Numbered from the stretch's first letter, positions 21,341 to 55,952 are shown. The stretch: DNA of 64,000 nt from Candidatus Marinacidobacterales bacterium (GCA_965237955.1 OZ250169.1:4832001-4896000), one strand, 5' to 3'. Program-made: numbers and translations. Notes: generated by a model from the sequence alone, not told the origin.

Positions 21341-21661
21341 ATGCGGACGACGATAGAAATCCCCGACGAGCTGCTTCGGCAGACAAAAGCTCGCGCAGCG
21401 CTTCGCGGCATGAAGCTCAAGGAGCTCGTCGCGGAGGCTCTCGAAGCGGCCCTCCACTACCCGAGCGGCGCGCCTTCGTCCTCGCGCGTCGCGGACGGGG
21501 CGGAAGAAGAGGCGAATGTGCTCGTGCTGGCCGACAATTGCGTATTCCCCCTCATCCGAGGCGACTGTGGACCGGCGATGCAAGACGCCACTGGTGAGAA
21601 GCTGAACGAGATCCTCGAGGAGGAGGAGGTTGAGCGCGCGATCGGTTCTCGCCGACGTTAA
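21341..21661 (+). CDS. RHH/CopG-type VapB-like antitoxin
   Basis: MRTTIEIPDELLRQTKARAA...LKELVAEAL; overlaps the PIN gene. Confidence 0.8.
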   Translation: MRTTIEIPDELLRQTKARAALRGMKLKELVAEALEAALHYPSGAPSSSRVADGAEEEANVLVLADNCVFPLIRGDCGPAMQDATGEKLNEILEEEEVERAIGSRRR

Positions 21662-22085
21662 CATCTGGTTGGCCACGATCGTCGACGCTCATCCACATCA
21701 CGAAGCGGCGCGGCGGTGGTGGTCGGACGAGCTGTTGCCTTTGGGAACGCCTCTAGGGGGAAAGGTATCGTTCTGCCGGGTCACCCAGCTCGGGCTGTTG
21801 CGCCTACTGACGAACGAAGCCGTCATGGGAAAAAAGCGGCAGAGCGTGCCGGAGGCGTGGGAGACCTACCGTCAGCTCCTCGCGCAACCTCCGGTCGTCT
21901 ACCTCGATGAGCCACACGGGCTCGAAGCGGCAATGCACGAGCTCTGCCGCGGCAGGCGCTCTTCGAAAAACTTCTGGACCAACGCCTATTTGGCCGCTTT
22001 CGCTCGAGCGAGCGCCGTGCCATTCGCCACTTTCGACCGCGGCTTTCGCAAGTTCTCCGGCGTGGACGTGATGCTCTTGTCTTGA
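21630..22085 (+). CDS. vapC: VapC-family PIN-domain toxin
   Basis: LADVNIWLA, CRVTQLGLLRLLTN, WTNAYLAAFA, ATFDRGF. Confidence 0.85.
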   Translation: MSARSVLADVNIWLATIVDAHPHHEAARRWWSDELLPLGTPLGGKVSFCRVTQLGLLRLLTNEAVMGKKRQSVPEAWETYRQLLAQPPVVYLDEPHGLEAAMHELCRGRRSSKNFWTNAYLAAFARASAVPFATFDRGFRKFSGVDVMLLS

Positions 22086-22196: not shown

Positions 22197-23077
22197 ATGC
22201 TTCGTTTCGCACTCGCTCTTGGCACTGTTGTTGTCGGGCTCGCGCTGGCCGAGGACTCCGCGCCGCGCGTCACCACGCTCGATCTCGACGACGACCTGCC
22301 GTCGCGCGGACGCCTCGGTGGTGTCAGCGTCGACGATAACGGCTTCATCTACGTCTCTGACTTCGGAAGCACCATCTGGCGCATCTCGCCCGAGGGAGGT
22401 GTCGAAGTCGTCGATAACTCGCTCCGGGGATCATCGGGGAACACCGTCGACAGAGCGGGAAACCTCTATCAAGCGAGCTTCCGCGACAACCGCATCGTCC
22501 GCATCGACAAGACCGGCCAGCTCGAGACCTATGTCTCCGACGGCCTCGATGGTCCGATTGGCATCACCGTCGACGGCTCGGGAAACCTCTACGTGTGCAA
22601 CTGCTCCGGGAACTTCATCGCCAAAGTCGATGGCAGCGGACGCGCAACCCGCTTCGCGGAGAGCCCGACTTCGATTGCCCCAGCGGGATCACGTTCGATC
22701 CGAGTGGCGATTTCATCGTAGCAAGCTTCAACAACGGCTATCTCGTCCGCGTCTCTCCCGACGGGGAAGCCGAAACGTGGGTGGAGGTGCCGGAGGGACG
22801 CAACGCCCACGTCGCGGCAACGGAGCACGGGCTCTATGTGACGAAGATCGAATCGAACCGCATCTACCGGATCGATCGCGCCGGAACCATCGAGGCGTTC
22901 GCCGGCACGGGCGAGCTCGGCCTGGATGACGGGCCCGTGCTCGAGGCGACGCTCGCGCGTCCGAACGGCATCGCCGTGTCACCGGATGGGCGAGCGCTCT
23001 ACGTCAACAACCTCGAAGGCCCCTGGCGAAGCTCCGAGCCCACGAACATCATCCTGCGTCGCATCGAGCTTCCTTAG
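22197..23077 (+). pseudogene. Secreted NHL/SMP-30 beta-propeller protein, frameshift near 22665
   Basis: Repeats such as GITVDGSGNLYV continue across two frames at a CCC run. Confidence 0.75.
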
Positions 23078-23112
23078 TTCGTCGGCACGAGGCGCTCGAG
23101 CTCCTGAAACCA
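23074..23112 (-). pseudogene. Orphan 3' tail of a Ser/Thr kinase-PD40 gene abutting the IS110 end
   Basis: TGG TTT CAG GAG CTC GAG CGC CTC GTG CCG ACG AAC TAA = WFQELERLVPTN*, matching the tails at 24666, 51931 and 55774. Confidence 0.8.
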
Positions 23113-23132
23113 GGGTCGAAAAACATCTATCG

Positions 23133-24410
23133 TCATGCTGGATCTCCCCGTAGAGAAGGCTCGATGTGATATCCGAGTTTGCGCAGGTCGCGGATCATAT
23201 TGGCAATGCGTCGTTTGGAGCGCGCGCGGCTAACGTCGGGGCCACGTTCCTCATAGTCAACGCCCTGGTGGAGAATCTTCCAGATTAAACGACACAACCG
23301 ATGGGCAACGGCCCAGATGGCTTGCGCGTGCCCCAGGCGTGGAACCAACCGCCGGTACACGAGCTGGAAGAAACTCCCTTTGGTCTTGACGGCCGCGTTG
23401 GCGGCTTGATTGAGGAGGCGGCGCATCGGCCGACTGCCTTTGGGCGAGCGATGGCTGTAGCTTTTGCCGGCGCTTTCGTGCTCTCCGGGGCACACGCCCA
23501 CCCAGGACGCGAGGTGCTTGGCCGACGGAAACGTCTCGGCGCTCGCCCCGACTTCCGCGATGATCTGCTGCGCCGAATCCACGCCGAGCCCAGGCACTTC
23601 AGCGAGTCGTTGCACAGCTGCTTGATGCTCGCCGAGCAGATGCGCCATCTCTTCATCGAGTTGCGCGCTCTGCTCTTCGAGCAATCGTAATTCCTCGAGC
23701 GTCATTTGCACGAGCTTCCGATAGACGGGGTTGAGATCGGCACACGCGCCGAGCGCATCGCACAACTGCTCGGGCGTGGCACGCAATCGACGGTCGGCCA
23801 ACTCCGCCAAGCGGGCCGGCTCCGTTTCCCCGTCCGCCAAGGCTTGCAACATCTGCCGCGCACTCAGCCCCAGAAGATCCGACACCAGGCTCGACAACTT
23901 TAGATGCGCTTCCTCCAGCAACGACTCTAGGCGGTTTTGGAGCTGAACCCGGTTACGCGTGAACTGGTACTTGCGGCGCATCACCGTTCGCCACAGGCGC
24001 TGCTCCGGCTCGGGAACGAAGCTTAGAGTCAGCTCCTGCGCCACCAAACGCTTCACCAATCGTTCGGCATCCGGAAAATCCCGCTTCCGACCCCGCGCGC
24101 CGCGATTCGACTTTGCTTGCGCCAGATGCAAGTTGCCCGACTGCGCACCCGCGCCCGGCCGAGCTCGGCACTGCGGAGCCCAGGACCGCTCCAACGCCTC
24201 CCACACCGGGCGCCAATATTGCGCGGTCGATTCCATCACTACTTCATCGACCCCCTCGGCCACCAGCCACTCCGCCAGAGCCCGAAGCTCACTCGGTCTC
24301 GTGCCCACACGCCGGCGCGAAAACTTATACTCGCCCTCTACTGCGATGTCGGCGACCACCACCGCCAGCATCTTCTTGTGAACGTCTATCCCAGCAATCC
24401 GGTTTGGCAT
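23133..24410 (-). CDS. IS110-family DEDD recombinase/transposase
   Basis: GIDVHK, MESTAQYW, KRDFPDA, VPGLG, CPGEHESAGK (catalytic Ser); 425 aa, intact. Confidence 0.95.
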   Translation of the reverse strand: MPNRIAGIDVHKKMLAVVVADIAVEGEYKFSRRRVGTRPSELRALAEWLVAEGVDEVVMESTAQYWRPVWEALERSWAPQCRARPGAGAQSGNLHLAQAKSNRGARGRKRDFPDAERLVKRLVAQELTLSFVPEPEQRLWRTVMRRKYQFTRNRVQLQNRLESLLEEAHLKLSSLVSDLLGLSARQMLQALADGETEPARLAELADRRLRATPEQLCDALGACADLNPVYRKLVQMTLEELRLLEEQSAQLDEEMAHLLGEHQAAVQRLAEVPGLGVDSAQQIIAEVGASAETFPSAKHLASWVGVCPGEHESAGKSYSHRSPKGSRPMRRLLNQAANAAVKTKGSFFQLVYRRLVPRLGHAQAIWAVAHRLCRLIWKILHQGVDYEERGPDVSRARSKRRIANMIRDLRKLGYHIEPSLRGDPA

Positions 24411-24429
24411 CGCTCCTCCTCATCGCCGC

Positions 24430-24600
24430 AGCGGAGCGCGTGCTAATCAACTTCATTAATCAGGATCTCAGGCTCGCACCGTGGACAAAGCGCTCACGGC
24501 GACGCCTACTTATTCGCTCTACCAACGCACACGCCGGATCAGCCAGTTGAACGGTCTCAACGGCCCCACTGGTTCGTCGATCTCACCGCTCCGGACCGCA
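24430..24600 (-). ncRNA. Putative bridge/seek RNA of the IS110 element
   Basis: Two stem-enclosed loops; segments CGAACCAGU and UCAACUGG match the kinase target, and GAUCCUG / GUCCA approximate the donor junction; boundaries approximate. Confidence 0.65.
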
Positions 24601-24665
24601 CCAGTCTGCCTTAACCGGAAATGTTTTTCATGTTCTTTCGCGAGCTGCGTCCATCACATCCCCAC

Positions 24666-27265
24666 TCAATTCACCGGAACCAGCCTAAGCAGCTCTTCGT
24701 GCCAGTTGAGAACAACCTGCAGCTCACCGCGTGCCCTTATGTTCGACTCCACGACCAGAAAGCGCTCGCCGTTGGCGGTCACGTCGAGGCGGTTGGGTAA
24801 AACAACCGGACCGGAAAAACTCGATTCGAAGAGGAACGTAGGTGCGCCCACGGTGAGCTCATCACCGGAGTCGACTTGGACCGCCATCAGTTGATCGCCG
24901 TCGCGATAGAAGAGCTCGCGCCCGTCCCGTGACCAGACGGGGCTGCCGCCGCCACCGGTCGAGACGAGGGTTTTGGCGCCGCCGTCGGGAAAAGGCCTCA
25001 CGTAAACTTCGTTCTCGCCGGATTCGTCCGAAGTGTAGGCGAGCCACCGCCCGTCCGGGGACACATCCGCTACGCGCTCGTGAAACTCGGTACGCAAAAA
25101 CGGGCGCGGCTCGCGGTCACCTTCCATCTCGAGCACCCAGAGGTCGGTTAGGTTGTCGGGGTGGTGCTCGTGGAACGCGAGGACGGAGCCATCGGGAGAG
25201 ATGGCGTCCGGATGGCGACGGAGCTCGCCTGTGGTGAGCTGCTCGGCCTCGCCGCTTCCGTCGGCCGGTTGCCAGAACAATTGGTCGGCACCGTTTCGGC
25301 GCGAGGCAAACACGATTTTCTCTCCATCGGGTGTCCAGACGGGTCTCATGTTGTCCGCGGTGAATGTGAGTCGACTCATCGCGCCGCGCGCGATGTCGTA
25401 GAGCCAGATATCACTCTCGAGCTGGATCGCCAACCGAGCCCCGTCCGGAGAAATCTGCGCGCCTCCGTAGGCAGCGGGCGGTGCCGAGAGCGACTCGCTC
25501 ACACCCTGCCGATTCACCCACACCAGCCGTCTGTCGTCGATGCCTCCCGAGAGGTAGACGAGGCTTCCGCTCTCGGAAACCGCGAAGTGCGCTCCTCCTC
25601 TATCGGACCCACCGACCACCCGAGCTACCTCCTCGACGACGGTCGACGCGCCACCCGCCACTTCGAGCGCGTCGAGATCGAAGGGCACGGCTTGAAGCGT
25701 GGCCCCGACGCGATAGACGAGGTGTCCCGTAGGAAGGTAGTGGGCGTCCGAGCCGCCGTCGACGAGAACCCGACGCTCGCCTGTGTCGAGGGAATGCGAC
25801 ATGATGAGACGGTTCGATTGACCGGCGCGTGTCAGAGTCAAGAGAAGCGTGCGCCCGTCGGGAAGCAGTCGAGGAAAGAAAAGCTGCTCGTTTTCCTCCG
25901 GCTCGACGACGACTTCCGGTTCGCCGCCGTTTGCAGACACACGGAGGATGCCTCTTGGTTCGGCGAAATAAATGGCGTCGCCCACCCAGCTCACTCCCAA
26001 AGGGGGGGAAGCAGCACAGAGGCTCACCGGGGTCCCGCCGCCCACCGGCGCCTTCTTGAGGCCGTCGGACCAGAACGCAATCCACTGGCCGTCGGGCGAG
26101 AAAGCAGGGCTTCTGCCTCCGTCTGTGCCTGGCATCGCTGTCGTTTCCAACCGGTCCATGTTTCTCAGGTGGAGTTGTCCGTTCTTGAAATAGGCGATGG
26201 TTCGTCCGTCGTGAGAGATGGCCAACACGTTGCGGCCACGAAGAATAGTTAGACCCTCTGGTGAGATGGCGAATCGCGTCACCGGCCGCTCCGCCGAAGG
26301 CGACAGGATGAGAGCGGTTGCGGCGATGCCCGCCAAAAGGCCGGCAATGCCGGCAACCCAAGATAGCCGTCGGCCTCCACTTCGTTCCGGAAGCGCCGCA
26401 CGGCCACGCTCCGGGGTGGTGAGCGCTTCCTCGATCTCGTTGCGCACGTCGCCAATATCGCGTCGCCGCTTCTTGCGATCTTTCTCGACGCATCGCCGCA
26501 GAAGTCTTTCGATGCGCGGGTCGAGCGCGTCGGGAAGCGCCGCCCAATCGGGCTCGAGCTTGATGACCGAGGCCAGGATGTCCGAGACGTCTTCGCCGGC
26601 AAAGGCTTTCTTCCCGCTCAGCATCTCGTAGAGCACCGCACCGAACGAGAAGATGTCCGATCGCTTGTCGATCTCTCGTCCCCGCGCCTGCTCGGGGCTC
26701 ATGTAGGCGGCGGTGCCAAGAATGACTCCCGCCCGCGTTCCGTCCCGAGTGAGGGTAGGGGAAAGAGAGCTATCAGCCTTCGGAGTGTCCTCCGCAAACG
26801 CTCGCGCCAGGCCGAAGTCGAGGACCTTTACTTTGCCGTCCTCGGTGAGCATGATGTTGCCCGGCTTCAGGTCCCGGTGGATGATCCCCTTCTCGTGGGC
26901 CTCCTCGAGCGCCTCGGCGATTTGCGTTGCAATGCGCAGAGTTTCTTCCACGGCGAGACGACCCCTCGACATGCGGTCGGCGAGTGTCTCTCCCGGCACG
27001 AGTTCCAAGACGAGGTAAAGCGTTGCTCCCGATTCTTCGAGACCGTGAATGGCCGCGATGTTCGGATGATTCAAAGCGGCGAGCAACTGCGCTTCGCGCT
27101 TGAACCGCGCGAGTCGCTTGCTGTCCTGGGAGAACTCCTCCGGTTAATGGCAACGTCACGTCCCAGTTTGCTGTCGCGGGCGCGGTAGACTTCCCCCATA
27201 CCGCCAGCGCCCAGAAGCTCGCGGATCTCGTAGGGGCCGAGGCGTTCACCGGCGGAGAGTGCCAT
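24666..27265 (-). pseudogene. Ser/Thr protein kinase with TM and TolB/PD40 beta-propeller; ~7-nt deletion at the VAIK motif (~27143)
   Basis: [32 protein letters not shown] repeats, VLNWHEELLRLVP; ATT AA|CCG GAG GAG where IKVLPEE is expected. Confidence 0.88.
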
Positions 27266-51623: not shown

Positions 51624-51931
51624 TTCTCCCCCAACGGGCGATGGATGGCGTACGAATCCGACGAATCCGGACGCGTGGAGATCTACGTTTGCGCCTTCCC
51701 GTATCCTGGAGCGACGCGGCAGGTCTCCATCGAGGGCGGGTCCTCGCACAGCCACGGCTCTTGTTCGAGTCGGATTCCTATCGAACCCATCCTAGATCCT
51801 ACGAAGTCAGTGCCGACGGCGAGCGCTTCATCATGATCGATCGAAGCGAGTCAGCACGGCCGCCGACGGAGCTGGTCCTCGTCCAGAACTGGGCCGAAGA
51901 GTTGAAGCGGCTCGTCCCGACAGACAACTGA
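51624..51931 (+). pseudogene. Ser/Thr kinase-PD40 C-terminal remnant with internal deletion
   Basis: FSPNGRWMAYESDESGRVEIYV...QVSIEGG joined out of frame to PRLLFE...YEVSADGERF...LVQNWAEELKRLVPTDN*. Confidence 0.8.
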
Positions 51932-55780: not shown

Positions 55781-55952
55781 CCGTCGGTCGGGACCAGCCT
55801 CTCGAGCTATTCGAACCAATTCAGCACGACGTTGATATGGCCTGCTGTTGCTTGTCGCTCGGTTGCGCGCGGTACACCTCGCCCATACCGTCGGCGCCGA
55901 TGAGACCGACAATTTCGTACGGTCCCAAGCGTTTACCGGGTTCCAGCGACAT
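55774..55952 (-). pseudogene. Collapsed Ser/Thr kinase-PD40 gene (first ~29 and last ~22 codons)
   Basis: [29 protein letters not shown] fused to GHINVVLNWFE*LERLVPTDGQ*. Confidence 0.85.

Follow-up and report, generated by a model that had tools for sequence, protein, structure and literature searches.

The 64,000-nucleotide stretch of Candidatus Marinacidobacterales bacterium DNA analysed here (GCA_965237955.1, OZ250169.1:4832001-4896000; hereafter the window, in which positions are counted unless the genome is named) contains an insertion sequence (IS) of the IS110 family at 23110..24701 on the minus strand. Our explanation, to which we assign a probability of roughly 0.7, is that the leader of this element holds two guides for the target TCAACT/GGTTCG and that the element carries an in-frame tail with which the last 11-13 residues of the host protein are exchanged, a replacement that likely preserves the working of the host gene and makes the element cheap to carry. 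The target, the 12-mer TCAACTGGTTCG, corresponds to (C)TC AAC TGG TTC G, the L-N-W-F codons near the end of PD40 propeller genes, and all interpretable insertion targets resemble it.

The transposase/recombinase gene (23133..24410, minus strand) encodes 425 amino acids, in which Pfam recognises an N-terminal DEDD/RuvC-like domain, PF01548 (E 7e-15; 55.5 bits, cut-off 29), and a C-terminal PF02371 domain (E 1e-18; 68 bits, cut-off 21.3). A long non-coding left end of 291 nt (24701-24411) precedes the gene and a short right end of 23 nt (23132-23110) follows it, which is the arrangement that separates the IS110 group from the IS1111 group in the relevant sections of PMC11208160. Blastn and flank comparison within the window's own genome, one 8.13-Mb contig, revealed 10 copies with 99-100% identity: eight have a full left end, one is a tandem copy with a shorter left end, and one is truncated at the second codon of the gene. 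The 425-aa open reading frame (ORF) is intact in 8 of the 9 copies that retain the start codon. The element is thus multicopy, with defined ends, site-specific insertion and a short core (CTGG) shared by both junctions, as befits the IS110 family. The initial annotation, made from the window alone, had described an IS110 element with a bridge-type leader, and this is borne out by the Pfam domains as well as by the two-loop fold and the guide covariation in relatives described below.

The ends of the element were defined by comparing the copies and their flanks. The eight full left ends are all identical from TCAACTGG CACGAAGAGCTGCTTAGG... onward, and the DNA to the left of TCAACTGG varies between sites. 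All ten right ends terminate in ...TTTTTCGATCCTGG, the window copy alone having GACC for GATC (C at 23115, where the nine other copies have T); its right-end tip, ...TTTTTCGACC-CTGG, occupies 23110..23125 (minus strand), with ...TTCGACC-CTGG at 23120-23110. In seven of the ten, the sequence beyond the right end is a family tail that resumes at the W codon (GTTCGACGAGCTCGA..., GTTCGAAGAGTTGAAG...), and the remaining three adjoin tandem-array sequence. The left target half, TCAACTGG (24702..24709, minus strand), represents the L-N-W codons of the host gene and is present at all eight full left junctions; its CTGG (24705-24702) recurs at the right end. From the flanks at both junctions, the original target is reconstructed as TCAACTGG/TTCG..., with CTGG at both junctions, so that the element measures 1,592 bp when one of the two target-shared CTGG copies is counted. 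At six independent sites, the targets reconstructed in this way match TCAACTGGTTCG at 12, 12, 12, 11, 10 and 10 of 12 positions.

The initial annotation had placed the left end after the upstream stop codon. In such a layout the upstream tail would be native, and the insertion would cut about 12 codons off another family gene. The window copy, when viewed alone, lends itself to this: the peptide before that stop, HEELLRLVPVN, resembles the natural end of the upstream kinase gene, the upstream ORF looks complete and is followed by an intergenic stretch, and, elsewhere in the genome, one tandem junction joins a right end to an internal site 56 nt in. However, the same 56 nt are present in 8/8 full left ends with different DNA to their left, the right flank resumes the family tail exactly past the W codon, the contigs of other organisms end the repeat at 24709-24719, and the last base of the sense guide discussed below fits the long form (C), not the short form (A); segmental duplication of one locus is excluded by the differing flanks. 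We therefore regard a left end behind the stop as highly improbable and place the start of the element at 24701, which also makes the circle junction predicted from the former boundary wrong. The short form (left end at 24653) was considered as the main element and rejected, as it is represented by one junction against eight long left ends. The strings listed initially, i.e. the guides, GATC/GATC, GATCCTG (24467-24461), GTCCA (24486-24482), the right end and WFQELERLVPTN with its stop codon, do all lie on the minus strand where they had been placed.

Contigs from public sequencing runs of three other organisms contain the repeat from 23108 (in one, 23562) to 24709, 24710 or 24719, hence the repeated unit includes the tail there too; loose contig ends past 24710 show ...V-V contexts ahead of LNW. 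Among 31 species representatives of the same family and order, a near-identical element was found only in the window's genome.

Some copies depart from the simple arrangement. A tandem array of four copies lies at 5882276-5889050 of the genome, outside the window. Three of its units each repeat the same 135-nt left flank, the right end being joined to CAATTCGCC, for which the original upstream context reads AATG/CAATTCGCC; one junction connects the right end directly to the inner left-end site 56 nt in, giving the short form. Copy E (5372269-5373888) and the array copies A/F/G have left flanks that are not family genes and stay open for 21 and 14 codons, respectively, yet end in TCAACTGG, with family tails on the right, a combination that points to deletions or rearrangements mediated by the element where left halves match. 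Copy I (6927310-6928634) is cut at the second transposase codon, with unrelated DNA upstream and a normal family tail, WFEELKRLVPAP and stop, on the right.

The tail carried by the element, CAC GAA GAG CTG CTT AGG CTG GTT CCG GTG AAT TGA (24666..24701, minus strand), encodes HEELLRLVPVN and a stop. It is identical in 8/8 full left ends with differing outer flanks, so it belongs to the mobile unit. The displaced original tail of the host, TGG TTT CAG ... AAC TAA (WFQELERLVPTN and stop), was identified by flank comparison at 23074..23112 (minus strand). Since the element brings a tail with a stop codon and the host tail now lies to its right, insertion exchanges one tail for another and does not truncate the protein. 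The earlier estimate that about 12 codons are removed has to be amended accordingly: 11 replacement codons and a stop are supplied. In-frame host ORFs of 814, 662 and 360 codons run into the carried tail at copies W, B and D, and in all four other genomes with enough flanking sequence at least 350 codons of open host frame lead into it.

The host gene in the window (24702..27250, minus strand; Pfam and three-frame translation) encodes a Ser/Thr kinase with a PD40 propeller and now ends in the tail of the element. Its kinase N-lobe (27080-27250) is in another frame around 27090-27110, the break falling at the VAIK lysine. The gene is thus a pseudogene, or the assembly has an indel here, and the same two explanations apply to the many family members that appear as short ORFs in this assembly. 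Pfam detected PD40 repeats in all six further members examined and a kinase domain in two of them in addition to the window gene. The family is hence a propeller family, some members of which are fused to an N-terminal Ser/Thr kinase; the Ser/Thr kinase family of the initial annotation was right as to a multicopy family with kinase members, though not as to what defines it. When the C-terminal 330 aa were used in tblastn, 17 high-scoring segment pairs reached the tail. The exact 12-mer occurs in only one unoccupied tail (5,574,926 of the genome), and several others are one base off. Three near-copies of the target had been pointed out in the window, and both their positions and their scores are correct: 24698-24709 (minus strand) reads TCAACTGGCACG (10/12), 55812-55823 (minus strand) reads TGAATTGGTTCG (10/12) in a tail with an in-frame stop, and 51885-51896 (plus strand) reads AGAACTGGGCCG (8/12) in QNWAEELKRLVPTDN followed by stop. 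The first of these, however, is the left junction of the window copy itself and not a separate near-target.

Five residues (N337, W338, L342, V346 and P347) do not vary among 11 aligned proteins, seven of which end in element-borne tails. For a native member, the AlphaFold2 model computed with this 11-sequence alignment has a mean pLDDT of 86, with 72-73 over the last 20 residues. In this model the final strand of the propeller extends to N337, and W338 opens a short terminal helix. The modelled insertion point thus falls after the last strand, and the element would replace the terminal helix together with the V-P motif. Two observations concern the surroundings: the tail at 55812-55870 (minus strand), LNWFE-stop-LERLVPTDG, looks like a decayed family member, and adjacent small ORFs of 106 and 151 aa at 21341-22085 (plus strand) resemble an antitoxin and a PIN-type toxin, as judged by eye from the ORF list.

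The choice of the target is best explained by loop 1 of the leader, which together with its closing stem (GAGAUCG / UGAUCCG) spans 24534..24584 (minus strand; columns 83-90 with 131-137 of an RNAalifold consensus of 44 leaders), its GATC/GATC being at 24583-24580 and 24540-24537. The 5' side holds the antisense guide CGAACCAGU (24568..24576, minus strand), which is the complement of ACTGGTTCG, i.e. of the core and the right flank; the string CGAACCAGT is found at 24576-24568. The 3' side holds the sense guide UCAACUGGC (24542..24550, minus strand), composed of the left flank, CT, G and the first left-end bases of the element, with the string TCAACTGG at 24550-24543. In the 64-kb window, TCAACTGG has four matches (0.98 expected) and ACTGGTTCG one (0.50 expected), and arithmetic from these expectations indicates that both guide strings would occur within one 290-nt leader about 1e-5 times. 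Given the low expectations and the presence of both strings inside one such leader, the guide segments are very unlikely to be due to chance.

Relatives of the element allowed the guides to be compared with flanks at other targets. We collected 79 loci from species-representative genomes, mostly metagenome-assembled genomes (MAGs) of Acidobacteriota, with transposases 68-86% identical and leaders that align well; covariation was assessed in 77 leaders, including that of the window, from which guides were taken by anchor-based extraction. In 34 of 43 distinct guide pairs, the six variable nucleotides of the left-flank guide are identical to the element's own flank, and the mean match is 5.79/6 in own pairs versus 2.57 in cross pairs. 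The right-flank guide matches at five or more of six positions in 27/42 own pairs compared with 6.6% of 1,684 cross pairs, a one-base register slip being allowed for own and cross pairs alike. The metagenomic relative L169 has been retargeted, its guide reading CAUAUUGG and its flank CCATATTGG. In the tail-less relative L003, which is inserted at GTCAACTGG/ACGG, the antisense guide fits the right flank. Loop 1 therefore has what is expected of a bridge RNA, namely one guide per target strand, the two overlapping on the core and covarying with the flanks. Flanks and covariation together uphold the proposal that TCAACTGGTTCG, which encodes LNWF in the tails of a multicopy family, is the sequence specified by loop 1. 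The two outcomes that would have spoken against such programming, insertion at unrelated sites and leader segments that change independently of the targets, did not materialise: the six targets agree at 10-12 of 12 positions, and guides covary with flanks.

The same data bear on the possibility that the two tails are a target-site duplication, or that the target is chosen by the protein and not by the leader. Two similar tails do flank the element, and the role of the guides is read from sequence. Nevertheless, only the right tails vary from copy to copy, the left one being constant, for which reason a target-site duplication was rejected, and guides and flanks change together in relatives with about 70-86% identical transposases, the retargeted L169 included. 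We give this alternative very little credence.

Guiding by loop 1 probably also extends to the left junction. The sense guide matches the left junction of the window copy at 9/9 positions, and it continues for 2-3 bases into the element's own left end rather than into the right half of the target: GGC in the window element matches GGCACG, and GTC in Terriglobia-type relatives matches GTCCTTT. Judged from these matches, the extension is handshake-like. In the six tail-bearing elements that were tabulated, the last base of the sense guide equals the first base of the carried tail (C in W, T in L002, A in L018 and L079, C in L032 and L043). Read on the transposase strand, the core is CT at both junctions here and mostly CT in relatives; the L024 group has TT instead, and CA occurs at some of the right ends.

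Some observations on targets and loops were made in passing. A sister subgroup within the same transposase clade (L040:2785-2950; L004, L021, L029, L030, L050, L059, L066, L067, L069, L075 and L078) targets a different conserved sequence, ...GATTTCCGCAACTG/GTTGATCCGAGAAGC..., which recurs in a large number of MAGs of Acidobacteriota; L040 has a second stretch of left flank and left end after its right end, another tandem of flank plus element. In the runs X1, X2 and X9, several extra short contigs match the loop-1 region only (24528-24592) with about 5 differences; their variants at 24559 and 24562 lie in the small hairpin between the guides, and they may stem from related elements with the same loop scaffold.

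A complete tail upstream of the leader is also present in relatives: in L001, L002, L018, L032, L043, L079 and L085, the last of which is a second element in one of those genomes, as well as in the metagenomic L152/L154, L167 and L169. In 11/11 tail-bearing elements, the carried segment consists of 11 codons and a stop and follows the pattern x-x-E-L-x-x-x-V-P-x-x. The displaced family tail is recognisable to the right of the element in eight of the eleven; L085 has another short tail type there, the right flank of L001 is unrecognisable and that of L169 was not recovered. L152 and L154 have a common left flank (...EMILVQNW) and the same carried tail, and their displaced right tails differ (WFEELKRLVPTGRR versus WFEELKRLCPTK, each followed by stop). 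A quick IQ-TREE analysis of 63 transposases united the tail-bearing elements, L003 and the sister group with the other target in one clade (SH-aLRT 98), within which (L032,(L001,L002,W)) has a support of 99. The idea of self-immunity, in which the His codon of the tail would spoil the target at the left junction, was dropped because the tail carried by L002 regenerates an equally good target.

The Glu-Leu codons of the tail also form one strand of a covarying stem in the left end. GAGCTGC (24689..24695, minus strand) pairs with GCAGCTC (24642..24648, minus strand), which abuts the CGCGAAA box (24636-24642) conserved in the leader alignment. Across 11 elements, 72 of 77 cells are paired (70 of them Watson-Crick), as compared with 20-33 of 77 when the 5' strand is slid by 1-3 nt, and compensatory changes occur at two positions. 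One of them, a synonymous change of the Glu-Leu codons from GAGCTG to GAGTTG, is matched on the other strand by CAGCTC to CAACTC. In relatives without a tail, this position, next to the box and at a distance of 8 nt from the CT core, is taken by a GGGCC-N3-5-GGCCC hairpin; the tail thus sits where the 5' strand and loop of the left-end hairpin lie.

The remainder of the leader contains loop 2 (24436..24533, minus strand), predicted to be of the donor type, with an outer stem GCGUGUGC/GCACGCGC, an inner hairpin and GAUCCUG (24461-24467) on its 3' side. RNAalifold, applied to 44 distinct leaders, predicts an outer stem, the closing stem of loop 1 and the outer and inner stems of loop 2, with compensatory changes at 12 of 40 predicted pairs, including some in the stems of loop 2. 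By prediction, then, the leader resembles a bridge RNA in being a structured RNA with two internal loops closed by conserved stems. The sense segment of loop 2 tracks the right end in relatives (GAUCCUG with GATCCTG, GACCCUG with GACCCTG, GAGCCUG with GAGCCTG, GACCUUG with GACCTTG), in agreement with the original assignment of GAUCCUG to the right end. The second donor guide proposed at the outset, GUCCA for the left end, could not be retained: it lies in the stem of a loop-2 hairpin whose sequence varies freely in relatives, where GUCCA has no equivalent, and its match is taken as fortuitous. On the 5' side, the strand of loop 2 shows a weak likeness to the inner right end (by eye, 8/10 here and 6/10 in relatives) that we judged to be due to chance; this strand is nearly invariant, though the left-end tips differ greatly between subgroups. 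The fold of the single leader sequence (z-score 0.11) is uninformative, as the guides pair with each other. A terminator scan picked up a single terminator-like site, located within the gene, a yield not above that of shuffled sequences.

Several results weigh against our explanation as a whole and have to be set against the evidence above. With regard to the RNA, the right end of the window copy has one mismatch to its own loop 2, loop 2, inspected by eye, showed no segment that would guide to the left-end tip, the region 22500-25500 of the window has no Rfam match at E up to 1, and a promoter scan gave no sigma-70-like promoter. The order of the guides (antisense 5', sense 3') is the reverse of that stated for IS621, in the sections of the reports cited below. 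With regard to mobility, no back-joint of a circular form was seen in the DNA contigs of four runs, contigs being prone to drop rare forms. With regard to the tail, only three of the six independent left flanks are long family ORFs, the others being short (59 codons at copy C, 21 at E and 14 in the array), and the frame break in the window host gene means that tail replacement has not kept every host gene intact, unless the assembly has indels. In five other genomes, the relative is single-copy or there are two diverged elements, and tail carriage there rests on the two-tail layout, not on copy comparison. Finally, tail types are discordant with the transposase tree: the H-type tail of W recurs in L032 and L043, and L001 and L002 have an F-type one, hence tails have been exchanged or recaptured at least once.

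A mechanism may be proposed that accommodates these features. By analogy with IS621, the leader would serve as a bridge RNA together with the recombinase. The sense guide to the left flank would define the left boundary, with no part played by a guide to the left end of the element. If an ancestor was situated a few dozen bases past the stop of a family gene, it could then have recombined at the LNW site of that gene and taken the tail along, a step suggested by the match of the sense guide to the left junction (9/9) and by the apparently unread left tip. Capture at the LNW site would make the cargo in-frame by construction, and each on-target insertion after it would be an in-frame swap. The tandem array, the inner-site junction and the two non-family left flanks ending in TCAACTGG in this genome are products of the boundary-shift type.

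It is at this point that the main rival has to be considered, i.e. neutral carriage, with the same targeting and the same boundaries. The tail would be a hitch-hiking flank captured once or more by boundary slip, with the stem conserved and not the peptide, and with no benefit. Under the capture model the in-frame property would indeed arise without selection, and the conservation of Glu-Leu could be for the stem alone, as these codons coincide with it. IS110 loci are reported to expand by half-match recombination in the available portions of two recent studies (10.64898/2026.08.14.744561; 10.64898/2026.08.31.748434), several host genes beside copies are broken or absent, and the discordance of tail types with the tree is also in line with neutrality. 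On the other hand, the stop is at codon 12 in 11/11 elements, Val-Pro and Leu are retained outside the stem, host ORFs are open over at least 350 codons in 4/4 other genomes, and the tails of L032 and L043 differ less than the spacers, although the last is an impression by eye only. We thus consider neutral carriage rather unlikely. That selection maintains the tail, acting on the host protein as well as on the stem, is suggested by its unvarying length and its stop codon, by the V-P residues that lie beyond the stem and by the open frames of the hosts.

A more far-reaching version of the swap hypothesis, which we put forward tentatively and at somewhat less than even odds, is that the tail-bearing clade has evolved self-healing insertion. 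The 36-nt gene end would be under a double constraint, as the peptide x-x-E-L-x-x-x-V-P-x-x-stop and as a hairpin strand, and would let the element spread through the family without knocking out its members, possibly riding on their transcription. It would have been acquired since nothing but the target guide fixes the left boundary, and the whole would amount to a natural RNA-programmed swap of C-terminal tails.

Compared with the IS621/IS110 bridge recombinases, as far as they are covered in the consulted parts of PMC11208160 and PMC11208158, the element is alike in its DEDD and Ser domains and in the long non-coding left end before the gene. Both have a two-loop RNA with sense and antisense guides overlapping on a CT core, that of our element being predicted from its sequence, and in both a 2-nt extension of the 3'-side guide matches partner DNA in a handshake-like manner; the reading of the right end by loop 2 is a further IS621-like trait. 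In IS621, according to the same sections, the sense left guide is on the 5' side of the loop and the antisense right guide with two handshake bases on the 3' side, and a loop 2 of this type holds guides for both donor halves, of which the right-end half is matched, with covariation, in our element. In contrast to IS621 as described there, our element targets coding sequence and has a left end with a coding tail and a long-range stem; a guide to that end was not found.

Bridge-RNA recombinases are known to land in intergenic repeats or other mobile DNA. Coding motifs as landing pads, which the flanks confirm for this element, are not a first: ISEc21, of the IS1111/IS110 kind, lands at the codons for D of the DDE motif in IS3 transposase genes, as given in the figure legend of 10.1101/2024.04.26.591405, and so likewise targets codons of a conserved protein motif common to a gene family. 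According to that legend, unlike our element, it hits other mobile elements and appears to interrupt the gene, and no replacement end is mentioned there. Boundary shifts by half-matches, tandem expansions and junctions that keep one canonical donor half have been described for IS110 (10.64898/2026.08.14.744561; 10.64898/2026.08.31.748434). To the extent that these studies were accessible, such behaviour fits the capture model, the tandem array and the short-form junction; however, the expanded loci carry kilobase cargo (resistance genes, plasmid DNA), whereas the cargo here is a 36-nt in-frame gene end that repairs the target.

With respect to the repaired gene end, the closest parallel is elsewhere. 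Phages and islands that integrate into tRNA genes, or e14 and phage 21 in icd, carry the 3' end of the target gene and displace the original end downstream. As in our element, which completes the host gene in frame, the substitute end keeps the interrupted gene complete. Those systems, however, use tyrosine integrases, long attP/attB identity and a single-copy site, whereas here a 1.6-kb RNA-guided IS, in which a tyrosine integrase is absent, addresses a paralogous family through recognition of about 12 bp. Full-text literature searches, in which supplements were not covered, yielded nothing on IS110 elements that bring along a substitute gene end. Targeting of coding motifs by the IS110/IS1111 kind is therefore already in print, and the carried replacement tail appears to be undescribed.

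The element belongs to a natural clade that is directed to a coding motif in genes of its host and itself supplies the gene end lost on insertion. It bears on how the boundaries of IS110 elements are defined, as the left end appears to be unread by loop 2, and it provides a natural model for bridge recombinases that would replace or tag C-termini without leaving a scar. The Glu-Leu codons that double as a hairpin strand are a compact case of overlapping constraints. If the tail is functional, a selfish element could in this way cut its own cost, in parallel to the phages that restore tRNA or icd ends, using RNA-guided recognition of about 12 bp.

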